Virus record (IMG/VR): IMGVR_UViG_2713896773_000022
Coordinates: 1-13,038 of that record
Direction: 5' to 3' (one strand)
Length of the DNA stretch: 13,038 nucleotides
Source of the DNA: a virus
Lineage: Duplodnaviria; Heunggongvirae; Uroviricota; Caudoviricetes
Shown: piece by piece, positions 1 through 13,038 of the stretch
How the letters are laid out: every line of letters begins with the position of its first letter
Position numbering within the stretch: position 1 is the first letter of the stretch
Notes under the pieces: generated by a model
Seen by the model: only the letters and a program-made list of their open reading frames with translations
Database searches by the model: none
Told to the model about the DNA's origin: nothing
Position numbers and translations under genes: made by a program

Positions 1-216
1 CGTTACTTCTCGCAGCGGGTCGGCATAAGCATTGCCACTATCGAAGCTGACGTTGTTTTTTGCCCCGCCTCCTGACAGCAACCACGCCACCGGCTCTGCT
101 TCCAGCGATGCCAGCGCGATACGCGCCAGCGCCGAAGCCTCACCACATTGAACGTGGTCAGTTTCGATAATTTGCTGTAACTGCTCTTTGGTGAATTCTT
201 TGATAATAGTGCTCAT
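1..216 (-). CDS. Hypothetical protein, partial (start codon at 216..214, 3' end beyond window start)
   Basis: ATG at 216..214 preceded by GAGG; open frame runs to position 1 with no stop (72 codons, MSTIIKEFTKEQLQQIIETDHVQCGEASALARIALASLEAEP...). Same strand as and closely downstream of the 102-aa ORF. No recognisable motif. Confidence 0.4.
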   Translation of the reverse strand, partial: MSTIIKEFTKEQLQQIIETDHVQCGEASALARIALASLEAEPVAWLLSGGGAKNNVSFDSGNAYADPLREVT

Positions 217-226
217 GGGTTAGTCC

Positions 227-535
227 TCAATCCCACTGCAAAACAGATGCGAAATATGCACCGCGACAAGGCTCATTCCGTGGATGATGCCAGCCTGAAT
301 ATCCATCTTGACCGCCTATTGGACTGACCTTGTACCAGCACTGGTAATAGCGAGCGCTACTAGCAAAATCAGCTGCGCCATCAGAGTCGATTACATCCTG
401 ATGCACCGATGCCTGAATAATTTCCGATTCGGTGTAATCACCACGCATGACAACAAATCGGGCATCGTCCGAGCAAAGATAATCACATGAGCCGTCATGT
501 TTACCTTTGGTGGTAGGTTTGATTAATTTATCCAT
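227..535 (-). CDS. Hypothetical phage protein (102 aa)
   Basis: ORF from track; ATG at 535..533 lies 1 nt after the TGA of the upstream gene (539..537), with GGGAGAG upstream (translational coupling). No family recognised. Confidence 0.5.
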   Translation of the reverse strand: MDKLIKPTTKGKHDGSCDYLCSDDARFVVMRGDYTESEIIQASVHQDVIDSDGAADFASSARYYQCWYKVSPIGGQDGYSGWHHPRNEPCRGAYFASVLQWD

Positions 536-536
536 C

Positions 537-1100
537 TCACTCTCCCTTCACGCCAATGCCAGCGGCGGTGGCTGATTCTTCATATGCGCGCTTAGCGGCA
601 TTCAGTATTGCTGCCAGTGGCGTATACCCGCCGTCCATTCGGATTGTGTTGTGGATGGTCGCCATCGTGTCTCTCAGCTTGCTATGACTAGCAGACAGCA
701 CTGCAATCCTGTCCTGATAATCAGCAACCATCCGTCGCACTTGTTCCAGTGGTGTAACGCTGCCACCATCTGGCGGATCCATGTACTGAGTGCCTGGTAG
801 GATTTCGCAGAGGGAATTATCCAGCGCCTCAAGTAACGCCTGTTTATCACGTAGCGCTTCTTCCAGTTCAGCAACATGACATTCGCTATCAATGAGGTTG
901 TTCTCTGCTGCTTCCAACTCATCCAGCATCGCCAGCACGGTAGTGGGGTTTGCTGCGGAGTTCAGCGCGTTCAAGGCAGTGATATCTGCATCNNNNNNNN
1001 NNNNNNNNNNNNNNNNNNNNNNNNNNNNNNNNNNNNNNNNNNGTGCGCCAACTGCTGCCGCTGCGATTTCACGCAGCGCCTGTTTGTCGATGTTGCTCAT
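537..1100 (-). CDS. Hypothetical phage protein, coiled-coil-like, interrupted by assembly gap (possibly Ead/Ea22-like; tentative)
   Basis: ORF spans the N-run 993..1042, so the frame across the gap is not verifiable. Start ATG 1100..1098 overlaps the stop of the upstream 90-aa ORF (ATGA). Ala/Leu/Glu-rich middle (LEEALRDKQALLEALD) suggests coiled coil. Confidence 0.4.
   Translation of the reverse strand: MSNIDKQALREIAAAAVGAXXXXXXXXXXXXXXXXXDADITALNALNSAANPTTVLAMLDELEAAENNLIDSECHVAELEEALRDKQALLEALDNSLCEILPGTQYMDPPDGGSVTPLEQVRRMVADYQDRIAVLSASHSKLRDTMATIHNTIRMDGGYTPLAAILNAAKRAYEESATAAGIGVKGE
993..1042. other. Run of 50 N (assembly gap or masked sequence)
   Basis: Directly visible in sequence; true length and content unknown. 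Confidence 0.99.
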
Positions 1101-1369
1101 TGGGCGGTTCCTTCGTAACCGATGGCTTCTGCAATTTCAGCAAGTGTCTCTGCACTTTCACCCACTGGCTCATTCATCCAGTCGAAGGAAACAAGCTTAC
1201 CGCCTTCGATAACGCCGATGTTGAAATCATCACTACCTTGTGTTTTCAGACCATGCTTGATTGCCTTATCGCGCTTATCGAAGTCAACGCCGTCTGTCGT
1301 GTATTCAACTCCATGGCCTTTCTCGTTGCACCACCAGTACTGCTGAATAACGATGTATGATTTTCTCAT
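1097..1369 (-). CDS. Hypothetical phage protein (90 aa)
   Basis: ORF from track; start overlaps the stop of the upstream 174-aa gene and its stop overlaps the start of the downstream gene (ATGA junctions), indicating an operon member. Confidence 0.5.
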   Translation of the reverse strand: MRKSYIVIQQYWWCNEKGHGVEYTTDGVDFDKRDKAIKHGLKTQGSDDFNIGVIEGGKLVSFDWMNEPVGESAETLAEIAEAIGYEGTAQ

Positions 1370-1890
1370 GACTGCACTCCTTTGCGAATCTGCTCCCTGA
1401 ACAAGCGGGCTGAGACGATGATGTCTCTGATGCGTACTGATTTTTCGTCGAACTGCTCACCACCGTTTTTAATATGCGCATCCAGTTCTGCACTGTGATG
1501 CCGAATGAAAGCGTTGAGGTCATGCGCCCGTACTTCAGCCAGGAAAACATCGGTGGCTGGTGTTTTGGCATTCTCCAACGATGCTATTGAATCCTGAGCA
1601 TCACAAAGCCGTAATAGCGCGTCCATTTGCTCGCCGTCAGCGTCATAGCTGAATAGGGCATAGTCATCATGGTGTGCTTCCATATCTTCTGAGGCATGCA
1701 GTATTCCAGCCTTCAGCCCCGCATTCTCCGCTGCCAGCGCATTAGCACGCACCAATTGCACTTCCAGTTGCGTTGCCAAATCGCTGATCAGCTTTGCCAC
1801 ACTGCGCATATCAACGGCACCACATTCTGCTTTCAGTTCCGAAGCCAACGCATGCCCGGCAGCTACGAGTTCTTTGGTTTTGTTGGTCAT
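1366..1890 (-). CDS. Hypothetical phage protein (174 aa), Ala/Leu-rich
   Basis: ORF from track; ATG 1890..1888 overlaps the stop of the upstream gene (ATGA). No enzymatic motif recognised. Confidence 0.55.
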   Translation of the reverse strand: MTNKTKELVAAGHALASELKAECGAVDMRSVAKLISDLATQLEVQLVRANALAAENAGLKAGILHASEDMEAHHDDYALFSYDADGEQMDALLRLCDAQDSIASLENAKTPATDVFLAEVRAHDLNAFIRHHSAELDAHIKNGGEQFDEKSVRIRDIIVSARLFREQIRKGVQS

Positions 1891-2180
1891 GCCGCGTTCT
1901 CCTGATGAATGATTTCCAGATCCAGCTTTTGAGCCAGAGCGTGTTCCGCTTTTGCGCCTGCTGATTTCTGCCAGCCGGACAGCAGGAAAATGCCGTCAGC
2001 GCAGCGGAGCATAGCGAGACAAATATCCATGTACTCTGGCTGGCTCAGGCCATCGGGAAGCGTCGCAGGGTTTAACACCACATGGCCTTCCGACGACAGG
2101 CGCATAGCCTCAAAATGGAACGCAGGGCGGTTAAATTTCGGGATGCCGGTCATTGGCCCAGCAATGTAAATTTTCATCAA
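1887..2180 (-). CDS. DUF4406 / nucleoside 2-deoxyribosyltransferase-like small protein (97 aa)
   Basis: N-terminal MKIYIAGPMTG is the typical start of NDT-like/DUF4406 Rossmann-like proteins (recognised from memory); gene starts 3 nt downstream of the helicase stop, so same operon. Confidence 0.55.
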   Translation of the reverse strand: MMKIYIAGPMTGIPKFNRPAFHFEAMRLSSEGHVVLNPATLPDGLSQPEYMDICLAMLRCADGIFLLSGWQKSAGAKAEHALAQKLDLEIIHQENAA

Positions 2181-3574
2181 AATTCCCTCTTTTTGTTGGG
2201 TCTGGCATCATTCGCGCGGCGTTTCTGCTCAGCAGCAGCCTGGTCACAGTCGTAGATCGCACCGTTGCGCTGGTCGCAATACACAACGCCGGTCGGGCCG
2301 TGGCGGTTCAGGCGCAACAGCAATTCGGTAGCCGCCTGATCTGCGTTTTCGTCGTATGCGCCTTCGCGGTAGATGCCGATCCAGTAATCACAATCCTGCT
2401 CAATCTGCCCGGTGTCGCGGGAATCACTCGGCATCGGGCGTTTGTTAGTGCGCTTCTCCAGATCACGGTTCAGCTGGGTAAGCAGCACCACGATGCAGTT
2501 CAGTTCCTTCGCCAGGTTCTTCAGCCCCTTCGTGATAATCCCGTAGGCCAGGTCGTTACGGTCAGCCTTGTCGGCGGTCATCAGGGTCAGATAGTCCACC
2601 AGCACCATGCCGACAGCGCCGCGTTCGCGTTTGATGCGACGTGACTCTGCGACGATATGCGCCAGCGTGATCCCGGGCGTGTCGTCGACGTACAGGTTTC
2701 CGTTCTGGGCCAGCCGTCCAGCGGCAGCAAAGGCCATTGCGACTTTTGTGTCGTCGTACCGATCGCCATAAAACACATCGGTATTTACGCGGCTCACCTG
2801 CCCCACCATGCGCTCCACAATCTGCTTATCCGGCATTTCGAGGCTAAACATCAGCGCGGGGAGCTGCTCAACTTCGGCACAGTTGACGGCCAGCTGGCTA
2901 TACAGCGTGGTTTTACCCATCTTCGGACGTGCGCCGATCACCATCAGAGCGCCTTTAACCAGTCCTTTCGGTTGCAGCAGGTCATCCAGCGAGCCAATCC
3001 CCGTCGACAGTCCACGCGTTGCGTCTGAGTCGCTCCAGCGCGCTTCCACCTCGTCCACCCAGTCGCCCATCACTTCCGAAAACTCGCGGAGCCCCCGGCG
3101 GTTACCGGTTTTCGCGTAGTCAGCGATATCAGTGAACAGGGTCTGAATAGCGTCAAACTTCTGGCTGGTGGTCATCCCGTTGCGGGAATACAGCAGCTCG
3201 GTGGCGCTGTTCAGCTTGTCAATGCCGTAACGCTCCATGGCTTTCTCGCGCACCAGCATGGCGTAGTGAACGATGTTCGCCGCGCTGGGAGTGTTTTTGG
3301 ATATCTCGGCCATGTAAGCGAAGCCACCAGCCTGCTCGCCAAGCCCTTTAGATTCCAGCGACTCAATCAGGGTGATCAGGTCGATAGGCTTCTGGTTGGC
3401 TGCCAGCTCCCGCATCTCGGCGAAAATCACCTGGTGGGGGCGGATGTAGAACGATTCTGGTTTGAGCATCGACATGGCGGTCTGGCAGCGATCGCTACCG
3501 CTATCCAGCATCATGCCGCCCAGCACACTTTGTTCGGCTTCGATGTTCTGCGGGATCATGTTCATGTCGGTCAT
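2177..3574 (-). CDS. dnaB: Replicative DNA helicase, DnaB family (phage-encoded, 465 aa)
   Basis: N-terminal IEAEQSVLGGMMLD motif, Walker A GARPKMGKTT, Walker B-like MVLVDYLTLM, overall DnaB architecture; start ATG 3574..3572 overlaps the stop of the O-like gene (ATGA). Confidence 0.9.
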   Translation of the reverse strand: MTDMNMIPQNIEAEQSVLGGMMLDSGSDRCQTAMSMLKPESFYIRPHQVIFAEMRELAANQKPIDLITLIESLESKGLGEQAGGFAYMAEISKNTPSAANIVHYAMLVREKAMERYGIDKLNSATELLYSRNGMTTSQKFDAIQTLFTDIADYAKTGNRRGLREFSEVMGDWVDEVEARWSDSDATRGLSTGIGSLDDLLQPKGLVKGALMVIGARPKMGKTTLYSQLAVNCAEVEQLPALMFSLEMPDKQIVERMVGQVSRVNTDVFYGDRYDDTKVAMAFAAAGRLAQNGNLYVDDTPGITLAHIVAESRRIKRERGAVGMVLVDYLTLMTADKADRNDLAYGIITKGLKNLAKELNCIVVLLTQLNRDLEKRTNKRPMPSDSRDTGQIEQDCDYWIGIYREGAYDENADQAATELLLRLNRHGPTGVVYCDQRNGAIYDCDQAAAEQKRRANDARPNKKREF

Positions 3575-4461
3575 AGCGCTTTCTCCCTGGTTTTCAGCAG
3601 GGTGTCAGAGCGCAACAGATAATCGAAACTGGCGCGCCAGCCTCTGTCGTTCTCACCGAAGTAAAACTTTGGTGCTCGCTCAGCGAAAGCGGCGAAGTAA
3701 TTCTCCACCGCCTCGACGGTTGGCTCTTTCAGTTCGGTCAGCAGGCGTTTGATAGCACGGCGACGTTTGTCGTTTAGTGCCTCTGCCTGGGGAAGGCGGT
3801 CTCCCAGGGTGGTGTTGTATGCAGACAGCACCGCCTGGTAGTCGATCTGAGTTTTCTTTGTGACAGGTTTTTCTTCCTGCCCGACACACTCCCCCTCTGG
3901 GGGTAGGGGGGTATTGTTTATTGTCTTTTGTATATTGTCTTTTGTGGTTAGCAGATCCTGCTTAGTTTTAAAAGCAGATTCTGCTAAGGTTTCACCATCA
4001 TCCTTAGCACCTTCCGCTAATGTTTCCTTAGCACTTTCAGCTAAGTTTTTATTAGCAACTTCCGCTAAAGAATCCTTAGCAGGTTTAGCTAATGTTTTGC
4101 AGAATCCGTTAATCTTTGTTTTCCACTCGATGATGCTGGTATTCATACCCACGCTACGCCCCTCCTGGACCAAGACTTTTTTGGCAACAAGCTGATTTTT
4201 TGCAGTCGAACAGTGTGTGTGATGCTTGGCAATCATCTGCTCAAGCTGGTCATTGCTAACCCAGTCCATCTTCTTGTTGTAGCCGTACGTCTTGCGCCAA
4301 ACAGCGAGGACGACACACAGCTCTGTTTCGCTTAGTCCGGATGCCATGACAGCATCGAGAAGCTCATTAGCAACACGAGTAAAACCATCTTCCAGCTGCG
4401 CCACGCGATGCTCCACGACCTCCAGCGGCGGCCTGTAGTCTGCTAACTTAACGACGCCCAT
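3571..4461 (-). CDS. Replication initiation protein, lambda O-like N-terminal domain (296 aa)
   Basis: N-terminus (FTRVANELLDAVMASGLSETELCVVLAVWRKTYGYNKKMDWVSNDQLEQM) parallels lambda O (LKRQFKVLLAILRKTYGWNKPMDRITDSQLSE, from memory); internal 8-aa protein repeats coincide with DNA iterons; immediately followed by the helicase gene. Confidence 0.85.
   Translation of the reverse strand: MGVVKLADYRPPLEVVEHRVAQLEDGFTRVANELLDAVMASGLSETELCVVLAVWRKTYGYNKKMDWVSNDQLEQMIAKHHTHCSTAKNQLVAKKVLVQEGRSVGMNTSIIEWKTKINGFCKTLAKPAKDSLAEVANKNLAESAKETLAEGAKDDGETLAESAFKTKQDLLTTKDNIQKTINNTPLPPEGECVGQEEKPVTKKTQIDYQAVLSAYNTTLGDRLPQAEALNDKRRRAIKRLLTELKEPTVEAVENYFAAFAERAPKFYFGENDRGWRASFDYLLRSDTLLKTREKAL
3891..3960. 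promoter_or_regulatory. AT-rich tract with a duplicated 12-bp motif, plus a C5-TCT-G5 palindrome, next to the iterons (putative unwinding element of an ori)
   Basis: attgtcttttgt occurs at 3930..3941 and 3944..3955; ccccctctggggg at 3891..3903 is followed by tagggggg. Lies on the downstream side of the iterons relative to O-gene transcription, as in lambda ori. Confidence 0.45.
4001..4096. repeat. Four tandem imperfect 24-bp direct repeats (iteron-like) inside the O-like gene
   Basis: tccttagcaccttccgctaatgtt / tccttagcactttcagctaagttt / ttattagcaacttccgctaaagaa / tccttagcaggtttagctaatgtt at 4001, 4025, 4049, 4073. Lambda ori has the same arrangement of iterons within the O gene. Confidence 0.7.
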
Positions 4462-4612
4462 TTTTCACTCCCGACGTAGCGAGAGCCAGACGGATCACGC
4501 CAACAAGACGTTCGGCGAACGCCCTGTTTTTTGACGCGGCAACCACCAGCCCGTCAGGGGAATCCTGAAGGCGTCGTTCCTCATTTTCCTGGTACTTTTT
4601 GCTCTTTGGCAT
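4448..4612 (-). CDS. Possible small basic ORF (54 aa), uncertain
   Basis: ATG at 4612..4610 with GAGG about 9 nt upstream; ends at TAA 4450..4448, overlapping the O-like start by 14 nt. Arg/Lys-rich (MPKSKKYQENEERRLQD...). Below the length cut-off of the ORF track; could be non-coding leader. Confidence 0.2.
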   Translation of the reverse strand: MPKSKKYQENEERRLQDSPDGLVVAASKNRAFAERLVGVIRLALATSGVKNGRR

Positions 4613-4690
4613 TAGAATTAACCTCGCAATTTACTGACGTTTGTTGCACCTGAGAGCCGCTTGTGTTCGTGCACAGCGGCTTTCGCCTTT

Positions 4691-4945
4691 TCAGAACAGG
4701 CCCGGCTGGGCGTTCCGTTTAACTTTTCGCTTCTCAAAGCGGTCAGCGGGTAACTGCTGCTTCTCCGCCCACAGTTTTGCGTGCCGTAAAACATCATCAA
4801 AAATCTTCCCCTTTCTGCTTACCTGGCTCATGCGCTTGTACATGTCGATAGCCTGGAACGCCCCCCCCTGAGCCACACCCAGAGAGAAACCGAGCTTCAG
4901 CAGTTCTTCACGCACATGCTTTTCGATGAATTCGATATGGTTCAT
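4691..4945 (-). CDS. Hypothetical protein (84 aa) between cII-like and O-like genes
   Basis: ORF from track; ATG 4945..4943 lies 3 nt after the cII-like stop with a GGTGGGA RBS; no family recognised. Confidence 0.55.
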   Translation of the reverse strand: MNHIEFIEKHVREELLKLGFSLGVAQGGAFQAIDMYKRMSQVSRKGKIFDDVLRHAKLWAEKQQLPADRFEKRKVKRNAQPGLF

Positions 4946-4948
4946 GGT

Positions 4949-5269
4949 TTAATCCCACCCCAGCGGCCCCGGCCTTGCCCGTTCGGCTTTCAGCCCGATA
5001 TCAGCGAGCGTTTCGACTGAGGCCAGATATTCACGCGATACCAGCACTGCTTCCGGTGGTGCGGCCTGAATCCCCAGGAAGGCCAGCTCTTTCGCCATGG
5101 TGCTGAAATGCCCTTCGGCTTTACGCCTGCTGGCTGTCGACTCGCTGATGCCCATATGCTCGGCGTAAGACTTCTGGCCCACTGATGCAAGCCGGTTGAG
5201 CAGGACGCTTTCGATCTCAACCGGATTGATAACTGGCGGGTCTAACTTTCGTGCGATTGCGTTCTCCAT
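4949..5269 (-). CDS. cII: CII-like transcriptional activator (106 aa)
   Basis: IESVLLNRLASVGQKSYAEHMGISESTASRRKAE parallels lambda CII IESALLNKIAMLGTEKTAEAVGVDKSQISRWKRD (from memory); sits directly downstream of the cro-like gene as in lambdoid phages. Confidence 0.7.
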   Translation of the reverse strand: MENAIARKLDPPVINPVEIESVLLNRLASVGQKSYAEHMGISESTASRRKAEGHFSTMAKELAFLGIQAAPPEAVLVSREYLASVETLADIGLKAERARPGPLGWD

Positions 5270-5310
5270 GGGTGATAATCCTCATAAAGTGAGTTACGCC
5301 ACTGGTTTGA

Positions 5311-5550
5311 CTAAATGGCGTGGTTATTTGGATGTGGAAAAATGGATGGAAGATCAGGCCGAAATTCGTATGCCTGAATCTCTCCGTTAACGGCATTAAC
5401 AAGGTCTGGGACATGAACAGGAGAAATACGCTTCTTCCCGTTCAACCAATCACAGATCGTTGATTGAGCCTTTCCACAGCGTTTAGCTAACTCTTTCTGA
5501 CTACCGACAAGGGCAATCGCTTTTTCTACTGCGGGGTTCTTCATAATCAC
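5311..5550 (-). CDS. cro: Cro-like / YdaS-family HTH regulator (79 aa)
   Basis: Divergent from the CI-like repressor across an operator region; AIALVGSQKELAKRCGKAQSTICDWLNGKKRISPVHVPDLVNAVNGEIQAYEFRPDL resembles Rac YdaS/Cro-like DUF1019 proteins (from memory). Confidence 0.7.
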   Translation of the reverse strand: MIMKNPAVEKAIALVGSQKELAKRCGKAQSTICDWLNGKKRISPVHVPDLVNAVNGEIQAYEFRPDLPSIFPHPNNHAI

Positions 5551-5565
5551 CTCAGCTATCAGTTT

Positions 5566-5640
5566 AAAGCGATTATGTATATCACTTTAGCGATTGTCAA
5601 TCGCCTATGCGATTCTTTGCCAAACAATCGCCTTGGCGAT
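5566..5640. promoter_or_regulatory. OR-like operator cluster (palindromes built on GCGATTG / CAATCGC)
   Basis: Perfect 15-bp palindrome GCGATTGTCAATCGC at 5590..5604; inverted half-sites GCGATT(5609..5614)/AATCGC(5626..5631); inverted arms ATCGCC-TT-GGCGAT at 5627..5640; isolated half-site AGCGATT at 5568..5574. Located between divergent repressor and cro-like genes. Confidence 0.55.
5572..5600 (-). promoter_or_regulatory. pR-like sigma70 promoter for the cro-like operon
   Basis: On the minus strand: TTGACA (plus coords 5600..5595), 17-bp spacer, CATAAT (5577..5572), about 20 nt upstream of the cro-like ATG at 5550. The -35 lies inside the palindrome GCGATTGTCAATCGC. Confidence 0.55.
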
Positions 5641-5645
5641 ACTAT
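5617..5645 (+). promoter_or_regulatory. Candidate sigma70 promoter for the CI-like repressor (pRM-like)
   Basis: TTGCCA (5617..5622), 17-bp spacer, TACTAT (5640..5645), followed by RBS AAGAGG and ATG at 5673; the spacer contains the operator arms at 5627..5640. Confidence 0.45.
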
Positions 5646-5672
5646 TTAAAGAGGACTTAAAAAGAGGCTTTT

Positions 5673-6365
5673 ATGGGATTCTCAGAACGCTTAGGGCACG
5701 CAATGGACGTCGCTGGATACACGCAGGCTAGGCTGGCGAAAGATGTAGGCATGGCTCAGTCCAGCGTAAATAAGTTACTTAAAGGTGCGAACGGCTCACG
5801 AAAAACAGTAGAGATCGCATCTGTTCTGGGTGTGCGTCCTGAATGGCTTTCAACGGGGCAAGGTGAGATGTTGGAATCTGGCATTCGCGAAGCAAACACG
5901 CTATGCCAAATTAAACCAGTTATGAATGAGGTTTACCGCGTGGATGTGCTTGACGTTAAGGCCAGCGCCGGTCCTGGCTCGCTAGTTACCAGTGATTTTA
6001 TCGAAACCATAAGAGCAATCGAATACACAACTGAACAGGCTCGCGCACTTTTCGGAAACCGCCCCGCAGATAATGTAAAAGTTATCACTGTTAACGGCGA
6101 CAGCATGGATGGAACCATCTCACCAGGAGATCAAATTTTTGTTGATACTGGCGTGACTCATTTTGATGGTGATGGCGTTTACGTATTTGTGTTCGGAAAA
6201 ACTCTGCACGTCAAAAGACTTCAGATGCAAAGAGATCGGCTTGCTGTCATCTCAGACAACCCTATCTACGAGAAATGGTATGTTGAGTCAGAAGACGAAG
6301 ATCAGTTCTACGTAATGGCTAAAGTGCTACTAAGACAATCAATAGAGTACAAGCGCTTCGCATAA
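5673..6365 (+). CDS. cI: CI-type phage repressor: N-terminal XRE-family HTH plus C-terminal S24 (LexA-like) autopeptidase domain (230 aa)
   Basis: HTH region YTQARLAKDVGMAQSSVNKLLKG; S24 domain with Ser in VNGDSMDGTISPGD and Lys in HVKRLQ, and an Ala-Gly bond in KASAGPGS as candidate autocleavage site; lower GC than neighbours; divergent from the cro-like gene. Confidence 0.9.
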   Translation: MGFSERLGHAMDVAGYTQARLAKDVGMAQSSVNKLLKGANGSRKTVEIASVLGVRPEWLSTGQGEMLESGIREANTLCQIKPVMNEVYRVDVLDVKASAGPGSLVTSDFIETIRAIEYTTEQARALFGNRPADNVKVITVNGDSMDGTISPGDQIFVDTGVTHFDGDGVYVFVFGKTLHVKRLQMQRDRLAVISDNPIYEKWYVESEDEDQFYVMAKVLLRQSIEYKRFA

Positions 6366-6366
6366 A

Positions 6367-6389
6367 CCCGGCTTGCCGGGTTTTTTATT
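6367..6389 (+). terminator. Rho-independent terminator after the cI-like gene
   Basis: CCCGG-CTTG-CCGGG hairpin (6367..6380) directly followed by TTTTTTATT; starts 2 nt after the cI stop. Confidence 0.7.
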
Positions 6390-6482
6390 GTTCCTGACCT
6401 GATTAAAATTCCCCCAATTCCTTCGCTAATATCATTTCATCGCACATTTCCCAATCAAATAAATAATCTTATAAATCATAAA

Positions 6483-6555
6483 ATTATCGCTTTAGCTAAA
6501 TAAATTATCGTTTAAGCGATTGACTCAAATAATCGCTTTAGCTATTGTTAGCTCA
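6483..6555. promoter_or_regulatory. OL-like operator repeats sharing the OR motif
   Basis: attatcgctttagcta (6483..), tttaagcgattgactc (6511..), aataatcgctttagctattg (6531..); the tttagcgattg-type motif also occurs in the cro/cI intergenic region at 5586..5596. Confidence 0.45.
6520..6548 (+). promoter_or_regulatory. Candidate pL-like sigma70 promoter
   Basis: TTGACT (6520..6525), 17-bp spacer, TATTGT (6543..6548), embedded in the operator-like repeats and pointing into the downstream plus-strand operon. Confidence 0.4.
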
Positions 6556-6628
6556 TCCAAACAACGCATTCAAACGCGAATGCCCTGGTAAAAGTTCTGG
6601 CAGCCGGGAAGACGGCAAGGGGATGAGA

Positions 6629-6718
6629 ATGGAAAAGGCATACGAGGAATATTTCGAAAGTCTGGCTGAAGGTGAAGTAGCGCTCAGCTTCGCAGAATTC
6701 GTGGAGGCTATTTCATGA
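6629..6718 (+). CDS. Possible very small ORF (29 aa; alternative start at 6623), uncertain
   Basis: MEKAYEEYFESLAEGEVALSFAEFVEAIS; AAGGGG/GGGGATGAGA upstream; its stop TGA (6716..6718) overlaps the ATG of the next ORF (6715), suggesting coupling. Too short to assess coding potential. Confidence 0.25.
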   Translation: MEKAYEEYFESLAEGEVALSFAEFVEAIS

Positions 6719-6915
6719 AAGCTGCTAACCCAGTACCAAATAACGGTCGTGCTGTCGTAATGCGCAACAGCCGCACCGGCGCAGCATGGCAGGTTTCCTA
6801 CGACTACCGCGACGGCACCTACTGGCACGAACCGCAGGGCAACCTGCGCAACATTCGACGCCCTTATGCCTCACGCACCATCGAACCAAATCTTGTGCCT
6901 GCGGGGACTCACTGA
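6715..6915 (+). CDS. Hypothetical small protein (66 aa)
   Basis: Strong RBS GGAGG 8 nt upstream of ATG 6715; stop TGA 6913..6915 overlaps the next ATG (TGATG). No motif recognised; not arginine-rich like N antiterminators. Confidence 0.5.
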   Translation: MKAANPVPNNGRAVVMRNSRTGAAWQVSYDYRDGTYWHEPQGNLRNIRRPYASRTIEPNLVPAGTH

Positions 6916-7112
6916 TGGGAGCCCTGTACGCATTAGTGCTGACCATCACCATGACGAACGGTGATTACCAGGACGCTGTTGTCGGTATTATCGACAATCA
7001 GCAGCAATGTGAAGCGGCAGCGAGTGAGCAAATGGGCGTCACTAACTGCTATCCAGTCGAAGGCATCATTCACGCTGACGAAACGCCAGCGGGTTATGAC
7101 GCGAAATTTTGA
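6915..7112 (+). CDS. Hypothetical small protein (65 aa); resembles small conserved lambdoid-prophage proteins (tentative)
   Basis: In-frame ATG at 6915 with GGGGA RBS, coupled to the upstream ORF; MGALYALVLTITMTNGDYQDAVVGIIDNQQQCEAAASEQMGVTNCYPVEG has a hydrophobic N-terminus and two Cys. The 108-aa track ORF (6786..7112) is judged an artefactual extension because it overlaps the preceding ORF. Confidence 0.5.
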   Translation: MGALYALVLTITMTNGDYQDAVVGIIDNQQQCEAAASEQMGVTNCYPVEGIIHADETPAGYDAKF

Positions 7113-7122
7113 GGGATAAGGG

Positions 7123-7395
7123 ATGTGCAACTGCATTAATGAGGTCGGTGCTCATATCGAAGCGCGACTGAAAGAGAAGGTTCCGGAAGGTGCTGAAGTA
7201 AGCGAAAGCACTTTTGATACCGGTTGGGATAATCAGGTTCTTTCTCTTTCCGAAGGCAAACTGTTTATGATGCTGAAATACAAACTGGCGTACCGGGCCA
7301 AAAAGAAAAACGGCGAAATGGCTAAAAACCTGAACCGCCTAGAAACCAACGTAAAAATGAGTTTCTGCCCGTTCTGCGGTGAATCTCAAGTTTAA
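7123..7395 (+). CDS. Hypothetical Cys-rich small protein (90 aa; CxC near N-terminus and CPFC near C-terminus, zinc-ribbon-like)
   Basis: ORF from track; MCNC...FCPFCGESQV; Lys-rich centre; moderate GC; same strand and spacing as operon neighbours. Confidence 0.55.
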   Translation: MCNCINEVGAHIEARLKEKVPEGAEVSESTFDTGWDNQVLSLSEGKLFMMLKYKLAYRAKKKNGEMAKNLNRLETNVKMSFCPFCGESQV

Positions 7396-7434
7396 CGGTA
7401 TTTTGACTATCAATCAGTTATAAAGGAAATAGCT

Positions 7435-8025
7435 ATGGGCTGCGATATTCATATGATGGTTGAGGTTAAACGCTCAATTAACGGTGAAGAAAAATGGGTT
7501 AATTATGATCATTTCCGTAAAAACCTATGGTATGGAAATGACGATGGCGAACGGGAATTTGAACGTATTGATTTAGAGAGTTCTCGTAATTATGCAGCAT
7601 TCTCCCAACTCTGCGGAGTAAGAGCATACGCTGACGAAACGCCTAAGATATCCGAACCACGCGGTATACCTGACGATGCTTGTGATTACACCAAGCAGGT
7701 ATCAGAAGAATGGGGGTGTGATGGACATTCTCACAGTTACGTCAGTCTTGCCGAAATTCGGGAGTTCAGAACCAACCTTACTCCAATGCCATTCAAAGGA
7801 ATGATTTCAGAAAAACAAGCGGCAGATCTTGATAAGGGTATTAAACCCGATTCATGGTGTGGGTGGACAAGCATGCCAGGCTTTGTTTTCCGGGAATGGG
7901 AAGATACGGTAGATGCTTTAAAAAATATTCATGAATCGCTGGAGAGCAGAGCTCTGGAATTATGGTGGTTAGAGAAAAATATTATCCCTGAAAATATTCG
8001 AATAGTTTTTTTCTTCGATAATTAA
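7435..8025 (+). CDS. Hypothetical protein (196 aa), lower GC, Cys/His/Trp-rich, no recognised family
   Basis: ORF from track; RBS AAGGAAA upstream of ATG 7435; visibly more AT-rich than flanking genes; candidate metal-binding residues (GCDIH near N-terminus, CDGHSHSY mid-protein); followed by an AT-rich intergenic tract. Confidence 0.65.
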   Translation: MGCDIHMMVEVKRSINGEEKWVNYDHFRKNLWYGNDDGEREFERIDLESSRNYAAFSQLCGVRAYADETPKISEPRGIPDDACDYTKQVSEEWGCDGHSHSYVSLAEIREFRTNLTPMPFKGMISEKQAADLDKGIKPDSWCGWTSMPGFVFREWEDTVDALKNIHESLESRALELWWLEKNIIPENIRIVFFFDN

Positions 8026-8104
8026 AAAGCAAATTTTCAATTAATCAAATACAGGCAGCCATTATGGTGCCGGGATTCTTACAACCTTTTTCAGAGGAAT
8101 GGAT

Positions 8105-8272
8105 ATGCAGGCTACGACCAAACAGCAGCAGGCGATGAACCTTATCGCGCTTCTGTGCCTGATGTACAACTTATCGCCAGCTGACCTTGAGGCTATTGCC
8201 CACCAGCTCGCGCACTTCGATGCAGTTTGTGATTACAGAACACAGGGGATTAACAATGCTGCGTGTCATTGA
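8105..8272 (+). CDS. Possible small ORF (55 aa), uncertain
   Basis: ATG 8105 with GAGGAA RBS; MQATTKQQQAMNLIALLCLMYNLSPADLEAIAHQLAHFDAVCDYRTQGINNAACH; stop overlaps the start of the exonuclease gene by 17 nt. Not in ORF track (under 60 aa). Confidence 0.35.
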   Translation: MQATTKQQQAMNLIALLCLMYNLSPADLEAIAHQLAHFDAVCDYRTQGINNAACH

Positions 8273-8927
8273 TACCGAAACGACTGGGCTGGAAGGCGGT
8301 CCGGAAACCGTGGTGGAAATTGCCAGCGTCGATATCGTCGACGGGGTGATCTGCAATCCAATGAGCGACCTCGTTAAGCCAGGCGTGGCGATCGGTTTTG
8401 AGGCCATGGCTATTCACCATATCACCGAAGACATGGTGGAAGGCGCGCCGCTGCTCAGTGAAGTAATTGGCCGCTATCTGGGGGCAGATGCCTACGTCGC
8501 CCACAACGCGAAGTTCGATAAAGCCAAACTTCCTGCAATGAACGCCCCGTGGATCTGTACCGCTAAGCTGGCGCGTTCGCTCCTGCCGGATCACAAGAGC
8601 CACAGCAACCAGTACCTGCGTTACAGCCTCGGACTGAAACCGGAAGTACCTGAAGGGCTTTACGCTCACCGAGCGCTGTATGACTGCTACGTCACCGCCG
8701 AATTGCTGCTCTATATGGGCCGCCTGGCGAAATGGACGATGGGCGAAATGCGCGCCATCTCCAATAACCCTTCCCTGCTGCATGCGCTCCGCTTCGGTAA
8801 GCATAAAGGCGTCTCGTTCGCAGAGCTGGCAAAAACAGAACCGGGTTACCTGCGCTGGCTCGTTGCCAACAGCGAAGACGAAGACGTGCTGTTTACGGCT
8901 GAACACTGGCTGAACGGGGGTAAATGA
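8256..8927 (+). CDS. exoX: DnaQ-like (DEDDh) 3'-5' exonuclease, homolog of host exodeoxyribonuclease X (223 aa)
   Basis: Alignable by eye along its length to E. coli ExoX as recalled: MLRVIDTETTGL (Exo I motif), VAHNAKFDK (Exo II), HRALYDCYVTAELL (Exo III), C-terminal FGKHKG...EPGYLRWL. Start chosen at internal ATG 8256 (RBS CAGGGG) instead of the track start 8187. Confidence 0.85.
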   Translation: MLRVIDTETTGLEGGPETVVEIASVDIVDGVICNPMSDLVKPGVAIGFEAMAIHHITEDMVEGAPLLSEVIGRYLGADAYVAHNAKFDKAKLPAMNAPWICTAKLARSLLPDHKSHSNQYLRYSLGLKPEVPEGLYAHRALYDCYVTAELLLYMGRLAKWTMGEMRAISNNPSLLHALRFGKHKGVSFAELAKTEPGYLRWLVANSEDEDVLFTAEHWLNGGK

Positions 8928-9595
8928 TGGGTACTCCAGTGCTGATCCTAGGTGACTCTGGCGCGGGCAAGTCCTACAGCCTGCGCAACTTCAATCCGGA
9001 CGATGTGATGCTGCTCCAGTGCATTCCCAAAATGCTGCCGTTCAAGTCTGCGGGCTGGAAACTTCACGGCAAGCTGCTGCCAGACGGAAGCAAACAGCGC
9101 GGTAACGTTCTGCGCTCGGATAACTGGGAAACGGTGCTGGACACCATCTATCGCATGGTGCAGTCGAAAACGCGCCGCGTCCTGATCATCGACGATTTCC
9201 AGGTGGTCATGCAGCACGAGAACATGAACCGCGCGTACCAGACCGGCTATGCCAAATTCACCGAAATGGCAGATCACATCTGGCGAATCATCATGGCGGC
9301 CACCGAGCTGCCGGACGACTTCCGCGTTTATTTCCTGGCTCACACCGAAGAGACCGAGGGAAAGATCCGCATGAAGACCACCGGGAAGATGCTCAACGAA
9401 AAGCTGACTCCAGAGGGCTATTTCTCCATCGTGCTGCGCGCCATCAAGAAGGACGGTAAACACGTTTTTCTCATCAAAGGCGATGACAACGACACCGCCA
9501 AAGCGCCGCCCGACCTGTTCCCGGACCAGACGGAAATGGACAACGACCTCCACGCCGTAGACGTGGCTATCACCGAATTTATGACCGAATTGTAA
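8924..9595 (+). CDS. P-loop NTPase, Sak4-like (AAA_24-type, RecA-related) putative recombination ATPase (223 aa)
   Basis: Walker A GDSGAGKS and Walker B VLIIDDF; size and position next to an SSB-like gene match the phage Sak4 plus cognate SSB arrangement (established knowledge, recalled); ATGA overlap with the exoX-like stop. Confidence 0.65.
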   Translation: MMGTPVLILGDSGAGKSYSLRNFNPDDVMLLQCIPKMLPFKSAGWKLHGKLLPDGSKQRGNVLRSDNWETVLDTIYRMVQSKTRRVLIIDDFQVVMQHENMNRAYQTGYAKFTEMADHIWRIIMAATELPDDFRVYFLAHTEETEGKIRMKTTGKMLNEKLTPEGYFSIVLRAIKKDGKHVFLIKGDDNDTAKAPPDLFPDQTEMDNDLHAVDVAITEFMTEL

Positions 9596-9611
9596 CTTTG
9601 AGGATTTAACG

Positions 9612-10343
9612 ATGAACCAACCAATGACTTTTATGTGGAACAACGAAACGGCTGAGATGGCGAAGAAAGCTGGCGCAACAGGCGGGATCAGCGAAACCGG
9701 CGCTTACGAGGGCGAAATCGTTTCTGCGGTGTACACCTTCGGGAAAGATGGCAGCCAATCCCAGGCGCTCGAACTCAGCCTGGACTCGAACGGGGCAAAA
9801 GCAAATTACTTGCGCATTAACTTCCTCGGCAAAGACGGCCAGCAGACTTTCGGCATGGGGCTGGTGTCAGCGCTGATGTGGGTCGCCCAGGTCAAACAGG
9901 CGCAACCGCAACAGGTACAGGGTCAAAACGGCATCGAATGGCACTGCCCGGCACTGGTTGGCAAAAAGGTGGGCCTGTTCCTCCAGAAAGTGCTGTACAC
10001 CAAAAACGACGGCGGTGACGGCTACAAGTTCGAAGTGCGCCACGTTTTCCAGCCGGGAACGCGTAAAACCTACGCCGAGCACGCTGAAAATGCCCCGGCA
10101 GAAGCGATCGCCGCGCTTGAACTGTCGATGAAGGATAAGGACGAACGTATCCACGGCGGCACGCAGTTCTCTGGTCCGCGCAATGCCCAACATGGCGGTA
10201 ACCCTTATGCAAATCAGACTGGAGGCGCACCACAGTCTCGCTTGCAGCAGAACAGCGGTCAGCCACCGGTAGACTTTGACGACGATATCCCGTTTGCGCC
10301 GATCGGTCTTCCATTCCCTTCTCACTCTATCTATGCGTTATGA
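9612..10343 (+). CDS. SSB-like / DUF669-type phage protein carrying the SSB C-terminal tail motif DFDDDIPF (243 aa)
   Basis: RBS GAGGA upstream; Gly/Gln-rich linker followed by PPVDFDDDIPF, nearly identical to the E. coli SSB C-terminal tip (MDFDDDIPF), but here followed by 18 more residues (APIGLPFPSHSIYAL). Confidence 0.65.
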   Translation: MNQPMTFMWNNETAEMAKKAGATGGISETGAYEGEIVSAVYTFGKDGSQSQALELSLDSNGAKANYLRINFLGKDGQQTFGMGLVSALMWVAQVKQAQPQQVQGQNGIEWHCPALVGKKVGLFLQKVLYTKNDGGDGYKFEVRHVFQPGTRKTYAEHAENAPAEAIAALELSMKDKDERIHGGTQFSGPRNAQHGGNPYANQTGGAPQSRLQQNSGQPPVDFDDDIPFAPIGLPFPSHSIYAL

Positions 10344-10498
10344 CGCACACACAGGACGAAATCAGGGTTGGCGCGGTGCGCCTTCCCTGGCTCAAAGAGA
10401 AAAACGGGTGGTTGCTACCGTGGGATGATGTCGTTACCAACCCACTGAAGGCGCAACGACTGGCAGAAGAACTTAACGAAAAGCAGGTGGCTGCATGA
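10340..10498 (+). CDS. Possible small ORF (52 aa) bridging the SSB-like and dam genes
   Basis: ATG 10340 overlaps the SSB-like stop (ATGA) and its TGA overlaps the dam ATG (ATGA): coupled at both ends. MTHTQDEIRVGAVRLPWLKEKNGWLLPWDDVVTNPLKAQRLAEELNEKQVAA. Not in track (under 60 aa). Confidence 0.4.
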   Translation: MTHTQDEIRVGAVRLPWLKEKNGWLLPWDDVVTNPLKAQRLAEELNEKQVAA

Positions 10499-11367
10499 GT
10501 TATTGTGCGGAGATATCGCGCCAAGAGACGGAAACAGAGCCGCGCACTTGGCAGCGCCCGTTCCTTAAATGGGCTGGAGGCAAATATTCGCTGCTGCCGG
10601 AACTGGATCGTTTGATCCCCGCAGGTAAACGCCTTATTGAGCCTTTTGTGGGTGGCGGCTCGGTGTTCCTTAACTCAGACAAGCACGAACGCTTTCTTCT
10701 GGCTGACGTCAACGCTGACCTGATTAACCTGTATCAGATGCTGGCGGTGGTCCCCGACTCGGTGATCTATGAGGCAATGAAGGCATTCAGGCATCTGAAT
10801 GATGCCGAAAACTACACGGTAATTCGTGAAGCATTCAACGCGCAGCGGCTGGATGCGGTTGAGCGCGCAGCAGCGCTCCTTTACCTCAACCGGCACTGCT
10901 TCAACGGGCTGATCCGTTATAACCTGGACGGTTTTTTTAACGTCGGCTTTGGGAAATATAAAGCGCCATATTTCCCGGAAGAAGAGATCAGGGCATTTAA
11001 GCGGAAGGCTCACGCATGCGTATTCATGAATGCAGGCTTCAGGCGCACGATCGCGCTGGCAGGTGATGGTGACGTCGTTTACTGCGATCCGCCTTATGAA
11101 CCGCTGCCCGGCACCGCTGGTTTCACTAACTACGCGGCTGGTGGGTTCTCATGGGATAGCCAGGTAGAACTTACGGAAAGCTGTGTGGCAGCCCACCAGC
11201 GGGGGGCAAAAGTGGTGATCAGCAATTCTACCGCTCCTCGCGTAATTGAACTTTACGAACAGCACGGCTTCACGCTGCACCGCGTCAGTGCTCGCCGGGC
11301 TATATCCAGCAAAGGCAGTACCCGCGAAACAGCGAGTGATGTCGTAGCCACTTTGGGAGTGCAGTGA
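10495..11367 (+). CDS. dam: DNA adenine methyltransferase, Dam family (GATC-specific by homology), phage-encoded (290 aa)
   Basis: FLKWAGGKYSLLPEL, EPFVGGGSVFLN, LYLNRHCFNGLIRYNL, and catalytic DPPY in VVYCDPPYEPL; alignable by eye to E. coli Dam as recalled. Confidence 0.9.
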   Translation: MSYCAEISRQETETEPRTWQRPFLKWAGGKYSLLPELDRLIPAGKRLIEPFVGGGSVFLNSDKHERFLLADVNADLINLYQMLAVVPDSVIYEAMKAFRHLNDAENYTVIREAFNAQRLDAVERAAALLYLNRHCFNGLIRYNLDGFFNVGFGKYKAPYFPEEEIRAFKRKAHACVFMNAGFRRTIALAGDGDVVYCDPPYEPLPGTAGFTNYAAGGFSWDSQVELTESCVAAHQRGAKVVISNSTAPRVIELYEQHGFTLHRVSARRAISSKGSTRETASDVVATLGVQ

Positions 11368-11609
11368 TGATGAAGCTGATTAATCGCAGTAAGCAATCAC
11401 CTATTGGTCGCCGCGCTTGCGATGTTGCGCTGGCAGCTCACTTGCAAACATATGGCGACTATGGGCGAAGCAAGATGAAAGAGACTTATACGGTGAAGGT
11501 TGAAGGCGTGAAAGTCTGGGTGGAGGTGGTGAACCGAAAGGCGAGCTACGTGGCCACAGCGATGACCGGCATGCGCCGTCTCCGCTCCCTGCCCGGGCAG
11601 GTTGGTTGA
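11367..11609 (+). CDS. Hypothetical small protein (about 80 aa)
   Basis: Track ORF starts at GTG 11364; first ATG at 11367 overlaps the dam stop. Basic protein with no motif recognised; the true start may be further downstream (Met at MKETYTVKVEG). Confidence 0.4.
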   Translation: MMKLINRSKQSPIGRRACDVALAAHLQTYGDYGRSKMKETYTVKVEGVKVWVEVVNRKASYVATAMTGMRRLRSLPGQVG

Positions 11610-11650
11610 AAAAGATTTTGAATGGCCCGAACGGGCAACTGGAGAGAGCT

Positions 11651-11848
11651 ATGGATGATATTTTGGTAACGTCAGACCTGACCAGTCGCTACAAAATTTC
11701 ACGCAAAACCCTTTGGTCATGGCAAAGTGCAGACACAATGCCTCGGGGCTTCGTATGCCCGTTCCCACCCCCTGACTGGCCCGGCAACCCTAACCGCTGG
11801 CGCTCTGAGTCAATCAAAGAGTGGGAGGATAAAAAGAAGATAAATTAA
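11651..11848 (+). CDS. alpA: AlpA-family phage transcriptional regulator / excisionase-like HTH protein (65 aa from ATG 11651)
   Basis: [21 protein letters not shown]...[23 protein letters not shown] matches the AlpA pattern (HTH followed by FPxP...RW...EW); RBS GGAGAG before ATG 11651; convergent with and adjacent to the integrase gene. Confidence 0.7.
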
Positions 11849-13038
11849 CTGAAGGGCTCTCCGATGATCTCTTCAAGATGGCTCTGCCAAACGCGGAGCC
11901 AGTGTTTCTGATCATCGATATAGTCATGAAGGTTGTAATGCGCCATAACCCCCACCATCTGATGCCCGAGCAGCTTTTCAATTACGTGCGGCGGGCAACC
12001 TAACTCAGAGAGATTTGTGGCTATCGTCCGCCTCATATCATGAAGCGACCACTCTGCCATACCTGTTCCATTCCAAATAGAACGGGCGTAATTGGATGCC
12101 ACAGGTGAATGAACGGGCGAATCTTTGATCCCGCCATCAATTTTACGTTGTGAAGTCACCAGGTGATTGGTGTTTATTTTCTTGAGGTGATTTCTGACCA
12201 GGTTAACGGCGGCGTCTGAGAGTCCCCTTCTAATATGTACCCGAGTTTTATAACTGCCCGCAGGCACGACCCACTCATTATCATCCAATCGAAACCATGA
12301 TCTCTCACTAAGTCGAATCTCAGCCGTACGGCATCCGGTAAGCATAATAAATTTCACCAGGAAAACGGACTCTATCGACATATGGCTTTTCAACCACTGA
12401 TAGATTTTGCGCAGATCGTCATCGTCCATCCTGCGAGTTCTCTTTTTAGGCTTTTGCCCGACATCAGATGGCAGTAATCCCTCGAGTGGGTTTGAGGCGA
12501 TCACACTTCTGTTAACGCAGAACCTAAACGCCCGTTTGCACAGCGAAAGCATGTAATGAGCCATCACCCTGCTTTCTATAGAATCGAAGACGTTGATCCA
12601 GTGCATTTTCGCTGTGTTATCGACTTTGACATTCTTCATCGGTTCGGCGATATGTTTCTCAAACACCTGGCGATAGTAATCGACTTTAACTAGCCCGTTA
12701 GCGATACAGTGCCTTTCAATCCAGTAATTGAACGCTTCGGCAACGGACATCGCTTCCTGTCGGGTCTGCTTATCCAGCTTCACCTGCTCTCGCGGATCCA
12801 GTCCCTCAGTTAACCAGTTTCTGAATTGTTGGCGACGCTCTCTTGCCTGGGTGATACTCATTGCAGGATAATCACCAACATTGAGTTTTACCGCTTTACC
12901 GGCCCAGCGATACCGATAGAAAAATGATATTTTTCCGGCCTGGCTGATTCTGGCGTTGAGCCCGTGCGAATCAGAAATAATCTCGATATCATCTCTTTTC
13001 TTGCCGAGCTCCTTCCTGAGCTTTGTGTCGGTGATCAT
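11845..13038 (-). CDS. int: Tyrosine site-specific integrase, P4-like family (397 aa)
   Basis: N-terminus [13 protein letters not shown]...[27 protein letters not shown] typical of P4-type integrases; C-terminal catalytic region with LHDMRRT and HxxVGVMAHY (His-x-x-Arg and Tyr). Start codon is the last three bases of the window. Confidence 0.9.

Follow-up and report, generated by a model that had tools for sequence, protein, structure and literature searches.

We propose, with moderate confidence, that the small DUF4406 protein encoded in the 13,038-nucleotide (nt) stretch of Caudoviricetes DNA studied here (IMG/VR virus record IMGVR_UViG_2713896773_000022, positions 1 to 13,038; hereafter the window, meaning the whole stretch) is an early-expressed N-glycosidase of 2'-deoxynucleoside 5'-monophosphates (dNMPs), and maybe also a phosphodeoxyribosyl transferase, that acts on nucleotide pools. 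The proposal draws on sequence conservation, a structure model and analogy with a characterised phage enzyme pair. It concerns a minimal four-stranded protein, predicted to have the fold of the nucleoside 2'-deoxyribosyltransferases (NDTs), that a lambdoid prophage would express along with its delayed-early replication genes. The original prediction for this gene held that no function could be assigned from sequence, which now appears too pessimistic: partner genes found across phages, together with a Ser in place of an Asp, indicate 5'-phosphorylated deoxynucleotide substrates. The argument rests on the following gene and elements.

1887..2177, minus strand: DUF4406 coding sequence, 96 residues plus stop, ATG at 2177-2175 (from the list of open reading frames (ORFs), the sequence, Pfam and RefSeq)
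2185..2189, minus strand: Shine-Dalgarno GAGGG, 7 nt 5' of the DUF4406 ATG and within the 3' end of the helicase gene; reverse-complement read ...AAGAGGGAATTTTGATGAAA
2145..2168, minus strand: loop after strand β1, Y4-I-A-G7-P-M-T-G11 (translation YIAGPMTG; hhalign alignment to DNPH1)
1944..1964, minus strand: motif S72-A-G74-A-K-A-E78 (translation SAGAKAE), comprising the predicted 5'-phosphate-binding Ser and Gly and the predicted Glu nucleophile

The ORF had been reported at 1887-2180, with no strand given. It is real and lies on the minus strand, but the 97 residues quoted for its product count from a possible TTG start at 2180. Translation almost certainly begins instead at the ATG at 2177, which is preceded by the GAGGG Shine-Dalgarno sequence and opens the same 291-nt coding sequence in RefSeq. 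The product does begin MKIYIAGPMTG, as first described, and RefSeq already holds an identical protein (WP_016243552.1, 'DUF4406 domain-containing protein'); the gene is thus a catalogued, routine prophage gene and not novel as a feature.

Membership of the family is secure. The protein matches PF14359 (DUF4406) over its full length, with residues 1-90 falling on profile positions 1-90 of 91 (E 6.5e-35; 119.9 bits against a gathering cut-off of 22), which bears out the family call made at the outset, and it also matches PHROG 355, named 'nucleoside 2-deoxyribosyltransferase' (E 6.8e-43). Chance is excluded because 11,826 representatives of 50%-identity clusters match DUF4406 at E<=1e-3. The family is carried by 573 sequenced phage genomes, mostly those of Vibrio, Mycobacterium, Arthrobacter, Gordonia and Pseudomonas phages. 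Its members are marked by a conserved GW motif and usually measure about 95-120 residues; the window protein, with G68 (88% conserved), W69 (92%) and 96 residues, fits that description, shares the phage or prophage setting of the family and is indistinguishable from the rest of DUF4406. The original prediction was right that it is short for a full NDT enzyme, but because 96 residues is the usual length for DUF4406, the protein is not truncated. No match to the NDT family PF05014 was found for it at E<=0.01, and DUF4406 homologues score 16.6-17.9 bits against the cut-off of 28.8 for that family. Scans of PADLOC and the NCBIfam library likewise gave no match for the DUF4406 protein.

Relatedness to the NDT enzymes becomes visible with a family profile and a structure model. 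An AlphaFold2 model built on 51 diverse homologues (pLDDT 96.3, pTM 0.88) forms a four-stranded β-α-β sandwich in which the chain stops after β4 (residues 88-91). When the model was compared with the Protein Data Bank (PDB) using Foldseek, the top matches were NDT-superfamily enzymes, as the original prediction would have it, with TM-scores of 0.70-0.77 over the whole query (among them 2a0k, 6qai, 8pqt, 4jem, 8qhr and 4jen) and a few weaker, unrelated matches lower down. These enzymes comprise the NDTs of T. brucei, Leishmania and Chroococcidiopsis, the cytidine monophosphate (CMP) N-glycosidases MilB, BcmB and BlsM, and human and rat DNPH1. A search of the PDB with the single protein sequence returned nothing; only the family profile reached the T. 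brucei NDT (TbNDT), over the full length at E 9e-4, with weak matches to MilB, BcmB and BlsM at E 0.5-0.8. The modelled fold is that of the N-(deoxy)ribosyltransferase-like superfamily, superposable on NDT, DNPH1 and MilB.

The residues that DUF4406 proteins hold in common fall where such a fold would place an active site. Column frequencies were determined for 149 representatives, no two of which exceed 50% identity. G7, F20, P37 and S72 are conserved in 100% of them, G74 and E78 in 99%, Y49 in 98%, P41 in 97%, N16 in 96%, G11 in 94%, N36 in 93%, W69 in 92% and Y4 in 86% (with Phe in a further 13%), and the columns of M9-T10-G11 are 90-94% conserved. In the AlphaFold2 model these residues sit at the C-terminal ends of strands or at the N-termini of the helices that follow, where the NDT-type fold builds its active site. 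The Ser-x-Gly-x3-Glu motif, with its equivalent of the catalytic Glu, is 99-100% conserved. Both an NDT-type fold and conserved pocket residues among homologues, the features on which the original prediction had staked the assignment, are thus present.

The identity of these residues suggests what the pocket may bind. In the family profile, S72-x-G74-x3-E78 aligns with D-C-G-T-A-F-E of TbNDT, and Y4 with the Tyr of its KIYIAGP segment. An hhalign alignment with human DNPH1, the sequence of which was checked against the PDB, sets the motif opposite S98-L-G100-V-G-Y-E104, and Y4, G7 and M9-T10-G11 opposite Tyr24, Gly27 and Ile29-Arg30-Gly31. In DNPH1 the nucleophile Glu104 is positioned by Tyr24, the NH of Gly27 binds the 3'-OH, and contacts to the 5'-phosphate come from the hydroxyl of Ser98 and from the main chain of Ile29, Arg30, Gly31 and Gly100 (PMC10483697). 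Equivalents of this 5'-phosphate site are predicted, from the aligned sequences, to be S72, G74 and M9-T10-G11. In the NDT of C. thermalis (CtNDT), D82, six residues before the Glu, contacts the 5'-OH of the nucleoside (PMC10913048), and TbNDT likewise has an Asp at the position where Ser72 is 100% conserved in DUF4406. Superfamily members specific for phosphorylated substrates lack this 5'-OH-binding Asp (PMC12884076). Its replacement by an invariant Ser points to 5'-phosphorylated substrates. From these alignments, together with the partner genes, we infer both the activity and the substrate proposed above.

Gene partnerships lead in the same direction. Across unrelated phage groups, the recurrent fused, adjacent or overlapping partner of DUF4406 is a deoxynucleoside triphosphate (dNTP) pyrophosphohydrolase belonging to one of four families. 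In Pseudomonas phage H66 and its relatives, a PF04447 dATP/dGTP pyrophosphohydrolase lies immediately upstream in 51 of 55 loci, and it does so in the divergent locus L182 as well; in H66 itself the stop codon of this gene, gp10 (L003 3333-3995, equal to L105 2291-3001; PF04447 E 1.8e-24), overlaps the DUF4406 start. Since gp10 holds PF04447, its annotation as a 'putative host nuclease inhibitor protein' is likely wrong. Locus L160 (1888-3327) encodes a single polypeptide in which PF04447 (residues 113-205) is followed in frame by DUF4406 (residues 211-301). In the near-identical L161 the PF04447 and DUF4406 halves lie in different frames (2132-3109 and 2560-3330), a split that could reflect a sequencing error, a recent frameshift or programmed frameshifting. 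A second family is found in Mycobacterium phage 244, where the stop of the DUF4406 gene (gp113) is overlapped by gp114, a PF18909 dATP/dGTP diphosphohydrolase. A third is represented by gp165 of the cluster J Mycobacterium phage Halley, a fusion of DUF4406 to a PRA-PH/MazG-like domain that is split in Courthouse into gp159 and gp161; this pair is fused or adjacent in 50 phage records. In L164 the upstream ORF encodes a dUTPase-fold protein, and in BFVD, fused proteins named 'dATP/dGTP diphosphohydrolase' match the DUF4406 model. Of the eight E. coli loci shown with the identical protein, six have PF04447 further along the same operon, 2-3 kb downstream. By analogy, the pattern mirrors a pair recently described in phages. 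There, the dATP/dGTP pyrophosphohydrolase DutZ and the NDT-fold dAMP hydrolase/transferase DmtZ jointly turn dATP into adenine; phage Wayne has them as a fusion and Ghobes as separate proteins (PMC12884076, 2026).

Some apparent fusions were set aside. Actinophage proteins of 110-126 residues labelled 'MazG-like pyrophosphatase' or 'deoxycytidylate deaminase' contain only DUF4406 above the Pfam threshold, and are mis-annotations rather than fusions. Examples of such mislabelled stand-alone DUF4406 proteins are L004 2974-3354, L023 2492-2824 and L005 2968-3345, whose labels seem to have been propagated from fused or neighbouring genes. When ten long family members (235-358 residues) were scanned for fusions, a second Pfam domain was detected in none.

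If the DUF4406 protein is a dNMP N-glycosidase, its chemistry is most likely that of DNPH1/Rcl and of phage DmtZ. Glu78, positioned by Tyr4, would attack C1' of a 2'-deoxynucleoside 5'-monophosphate, while Ser72, Gly74 and the main chain of the Gly7-Gly11 loop would bind its 5'-phosphate. The base would be released and deoxyribose 5-phosphate left, or another base could accept the sugar-phosphate instead. The partner dNTP pyrophosphohydrolase would, in many phages, supply this dNMP, and during phage DNA replication the two enzymes would irreversibly clear the pool of one purine or non-canonical dNTP. As to its physiological purpose in a phage with ordinary DNA, we infer that the enzyme might rebalance pools or, as the DNA is replicated, irreversibly eliminate some purine deoxynucleotide that is non-canonical or unwanted.

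An extension of this idea to the whole family is speculative, and we consider it unlikely. DUF4406 would then comprise pared-down NDT-fold enzymes without a lid, found throughout phages, that, with interchangeable pyrophosphohydrolases (of the MazZ/DUF550, DUF5664, MazG and dUTPase folds), make up a two-step 'nucleotide eraser' by which phages with ordinary DNA irreversibly destroy a specific unwanted deoxynucleotide. The dNTP would be cut to the dNMP, and the dNMP then to base and deoxyribose 5-phosphate. Targets might be a nucleotide analogue made by a host defence, or purine dNMPs that carry methylation or damage and are set free close to orphan methylases of the phage. If this were true, viruses would possess in this module their own version of DNPH1, which sanitises the human nucleotide pool.

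Several observations weigh against the dNMP N-glycosidase reading. The literature searched for DUF4406/PF14359 yielded annotation mentions and no characterised member. Opposite Asp80 of DNPH1 the window protein has Cys53, in a column composed of Cys (66%), Asp (13%), Thr (7%) and Gly (5%), a low-confidence alignment (hhalign probability 1.4%) of uncertain helix register, and no conserved carboxylate besides E78 was found among the 149 representatives. The triad Asp is not strictly essential in CtNDT, where D62N keeps ~50% of the efficiency (PMC10913048). The chain ends 18 residues past E78, after β4, so there is no C-terminal segment to reach into the active site of a neighbouring subunit, as do Ser128' in DNPH1 and D111 and N118 in CtNDT. 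The invariant Pro37 has a Pro opposite it in TbNDT but not in DNPH1; because it matches a transferase in this respect, transfer rather than hydrolysis may dominate. According to PMC12884076, a Pro shared by every known transferase keeps water away from the site. No pyrophosphohydrolase was found inside the window, and PF04447 occurs within 4 kb in only three of 80 related IMG/VR enterobacterial loci. The position 2-3 kb downstream that it takes in sister E. coli prophages would fall past the left end of the window, where one gene is cut off:

1-218, minus strand: truncated gene, N-terminus only, MSTIIKEFTKEQLQQ..., running off the left end

This gene was examined as a candidate for the PF04447 partner. 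Its product is 44-48% identical, over 43-50 residues, to the N-termini of prophage proteins with a C-terminal PF04447 domain. At the nucleotide level, the gene is nearest to E. coli genes annotated DUF551 and looks DUF551-like.

The genes around DUF4406 place it in the early region of a lambdoid prophage, and bear on the claim that it is functionally coupled to the replicative helicase.

2177..3574, minus strand: phage DnaB-family replicative helicase, 465 residues (PF00772 and PF03796; TIGR03600 phage_DnaB, 494 bits)
1366..1890, minus strand: downstream gene, 174 residues, phrog_492; 4-nt overlap between its ATG and the DUF4406 stop
3571..4461, minus strand: lambda O-like replication initiator (PF04492 Phage_rep_O, E 1.4e-32; phrog_345)
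537-1100, minus strand: Ead/Ea22-like ORF, broken by a run of 50 N at 993-1042
5673-6365, plus strand: cI-like repressor
11845-13038, minus strand: integrase

Cro/cII-like genes are also present in the window. The O-like initiator is the first gene of the replication module and belongs to the same rightward early operon as DUF4406. The DUF4406 gene directly follows the DnaB-type helicase gene, as noted originally, but the described gap of 3 nt between helicase stop and gene start does not exist: the TGA at 2179-2177 shares its A with the DUF4406 ATG (TGATG), an overlap of 1 nt. At the other end, the DUF4406 stop overlaps the ATG of the next gene by 4 nt (ATGA, 1887-1890). Overlaps at both ends are tight operon packing. 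Further downstream, Pfam and PHROG identify the Ead/Ea22-like gene; the 50-N run within it is an assembly gap or masked stretch, and the protein sequence is therefore incomplete.

A prophage in the E. coli TOK-001 chromosome carries a helicase-DUF4406 block 100% identical to that of the window, and it is there that RefSeq lists the DUF4406 gene as WP_016243552.1. Nine complete genomes, TOK-001 among them, match the window at 92-100% from about 1844 rightwards through the helicase, with no match leftwards; against TOK-001, the mosaic breakpoint lies near 1844, inside the 5' end of the ORF at 1366-1890 (minus strand). Since the match extends only rightwards, the DnaB-DUF4406 block was inherited as a unit while the downstream Ead/Ea22-type genes were swapped. 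The early-left arm of the window (8187-11367, plus strand) encodes an ExoX-like exonuclease, an AAA ATPase, a 243-residue protein and a Dam-type adenine methylase, named here from the RefSeq annotation of the matching TOK-001 prophage, a set that differs from lambda exo/bet/gam. Antisense ORFs lie over the helicase and other genes, for example at 2153-2644 (plus strand, 163 residues); such long antisense ORFs lack support and are most likely non-coding shadows of GC-rich sense genes.

A census of related loci shows how local the helicase arrangement is. It covered 80 enterobacterial loci from IMG/VR, with proteins 63-98% identical, and took as the upstream neighbour the largest same-strand ORF ending <=400 nt upstream. 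That neighbour is DUF977 in 32 loci, a DNA methyltransferase (Dam, D12, C5-Dam fusion or MT-A70-like) in 18 of 80, DUF1627 in 14 and DnaB in only eight of 79. The DUF977 and DUF1627 loci, 46 in all, have DUF4406 behind a replication module of another kind. In a representative of the largest group the order is YdaT, O-like, lambda-P-like, DUF1627, DUF977, DUF4406, Ead/Ea22, and downstream neighbours in the census are mostly Ead/Ea22-like, as in the window. A second configuration has a 70%-identical homologue in the opposite, early-left arm, between a DNA methylase and xis/int. The usual DUF4406 slot, as judged from this census, is the boundary between replication module and nin region, whatever the helicase strategy. 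In phages of non-enterobacterial hosts DUF4406 lies beside dNTP pyrophosphohydrolases, methylases or polymerase accessory genes. Helicase coupling was accordingly rejected as a family trait, and with it the functional link first suggested for this gene; the overlap with the helicase stop is a matter of operon packing and timing and not of a helicase-specific partnership, such that the link is incidental. Among side observations from these loci, a DNA methyltransferase (Dam, D12, C5, MT-A70 or N6_N4) stands directly beside DUF4406 in many (L030-L047 from IMG/VR, L014-L018, L022 and L183), a locus search with the Gordonia homologue alone gave four loci, and P0175 lies on one short contig with unannotated neighbours.

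What remains of the helicase connection would be a non-enzymatic accessory factor of the phage DnaB. The TGATG overlap fits such a role, as do the inheritance of DnaB-DUF4406 as a unit in the nine complete E. coli genomes and in Citrobacter phage Omnitron, and the diverged DnaB genes (33% and 67% identity) that precede DUF4406 in L071 and L082. We nevertheless consider it highly improbable, given the rarity of DnaB in the census: most loci either have DUF1627 and DUF977 behind a lambda-P-type module or belong to the other arm, and the family is common in phages where other genes adjoin it. A catalytic-type motif conserved at 99-100% would, moreover, be unexpected in a pure adaptor. The methyltransferases invite a different idea, namely an N-glycosidase for a methylation-linked adenine or purine substrate, either methylated dNMPs from modified DNA or S-adenosylhomocysteine. 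Methyltransferases of several families lie directly upstream in the 18 enterobacterial loci mentioned, and a methylase is adjacent or near in Gordonia phage Brylie, L183, Pseudomonas phage H66 and a Brachyspira prophage. This adjacency may merely mean a shared accessory slot in the early-left arm, however, and a methylase is absent within 4 kb in 59 of the 80 loci; the Dam-like gene of the window is ~8 kb away in another operon, there are no methylase fusions, and the activity has no biochemical precedent. It is, in our view, an improbable substrate class.

Two further alternatives, each of which strikes us as quite unlikely, keep the nucleotide-binding fold and give it another use. A genuine nucleoside 2'-deoxyribosyltransferase, swapping bases between free deoxynucleosides for salvage, is what the name of PHROG 355 and the annotations of phage records imply; NDT transferases are the best structural matches, and the invariant Pro37 has its counterpart in TbNDT. 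Such an enzyme should nonetheless have reached the PF05014 threshold that DUF4406 homologues miss, and it would be expected to keep the 5'-OH-binding Asp, here an invariant Ser, and the C-terminal residues that complete NDT active sites, here absent. Its recurrent partners, furthermore, produce dNMPs and not nucleosides. A counter-defence protein that acts as a sponge or cleaver of a nucleotide-derived immune signal, or of a toxic nucleotide made by a defence system, would suit a small protein so widespread in phages (573 phage records; 11,826 clusters) that is expressed early and occupies variable accessory slots near genes of anti-restriction type (Gam, Kil, orphan methylases), and its lid-less pocket could perhaps take a larger ligand. 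Against this, Pfam gives only DUF4406, with no match to the sponge families Tad2 (PF11195), Acb4 (PF13876) or Sequestin (PF21825), PADLOC is without a match, the residues that never vary are those with which NDT hydrolases bind phosphate and carry out catalysis, and the fusions are to dNTP pyrophosphohydrolases and not to known sponges. The recently described sponges Sequestin and Lockin were compared with DUF4406; Sequestin is PF21825, an unrelated helical family, and the paper describing it makes no mention of an NDT-type fold. Literature searches linking deoxyribosyltransferases to anti-defence, or covering mycobacteriophage cytotoxicity screens, gave nothing usable. Of the functions originally suggested, then, nucleotide metabolism gains comparative support and the defence-signal idea gains none.

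Although the gene itself is routine, the dNMP N-glycosidase reading matters for a very large family. The comparative pattern, consisting of an invariant DNPH1-like Ser-x-Gly-x3-Glu, the loss of lid and general acid, and repeated pairing with four unrelated kinds of dNTP pyrophosphohydrolase, offers a concrete and cheap biochemical hypothesis for all DUF4406 proteins, and several misleading annotations in phage records are corrected along the way.

Each of the known enzymes shares part of this pattern. DNPH1/Rcl (PDB 8QHR, 4P5E) has the same Rossmann-like fold (TM-score ~0.72) and, at identical spacing, the Tyr, the Gly-rich β1 loop and the Ser-x-Gly-x3-Glu motif, although its similarity to DUF4406 is seen only at the level of profile and structure. 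The DUF4406 protein is ~50 residues shorter, with four strands and without the C-terminal segment, and hence without a Ser128' from a partner subunit; the Asp80 of DNPH1 corresponds to Cys53 in a non-conserved column, and DNPH1 lacks the Pro that is invariant in DUF4406 as Pro37. The NDTs (PF05014; L. leichmannii, T. brucei, C. thermalis) are the best structural matches, with catalytic Glu and Tyr aligned, whereas DUF4406 falls below the PF05014 threshold, has Ser for the 5'-OH-binding Asp and lacks the C-terminal contributors to the active site (CtNDT D111 and N118; PMC10913048). The CMP N-glycosidases MilB, BcmB and BlsM have the same fold, a Glu nucleophile and nucleotide monophosphate substrates, but are longer, belong to antibiotic biosynthesis clusters and are matched by structure or weak profile hits only.

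DmtZ offers a further parallel. It is an NDT-fold phage protein fused or adjacent to a dATP/dGTP pyrophosphohydrolase, an arrangement seen across the DUF4406 family but not inside this window. In DmtZ the Asp/Asn that binds the 5'-OH is missing while the transferase-type Pro is present, the same combination that DUF4406 shows with S72 and P37, and the triad Asp of DmtZ is replaced by Asn (PMC12884076). At ~145 residues and five strands it is nevertheless larger than the four-stranded, 96-residue DUF4406 protein, and its reported lack of sequence similarity in databases (PMC12884076) argues against membership of DUF4406 and for a different branch of the superfamily. DmtZ serves the synthesis of 2-aminoadenine DNA beside PurZ0, whereas no PurZ was seen in this window. 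If the dNMP N-glycosidase reading is correct, the dNTP-to-base logic of DutZ and DmtZ would extend from 2-aminoadenine phages to ordinary temperate phages.

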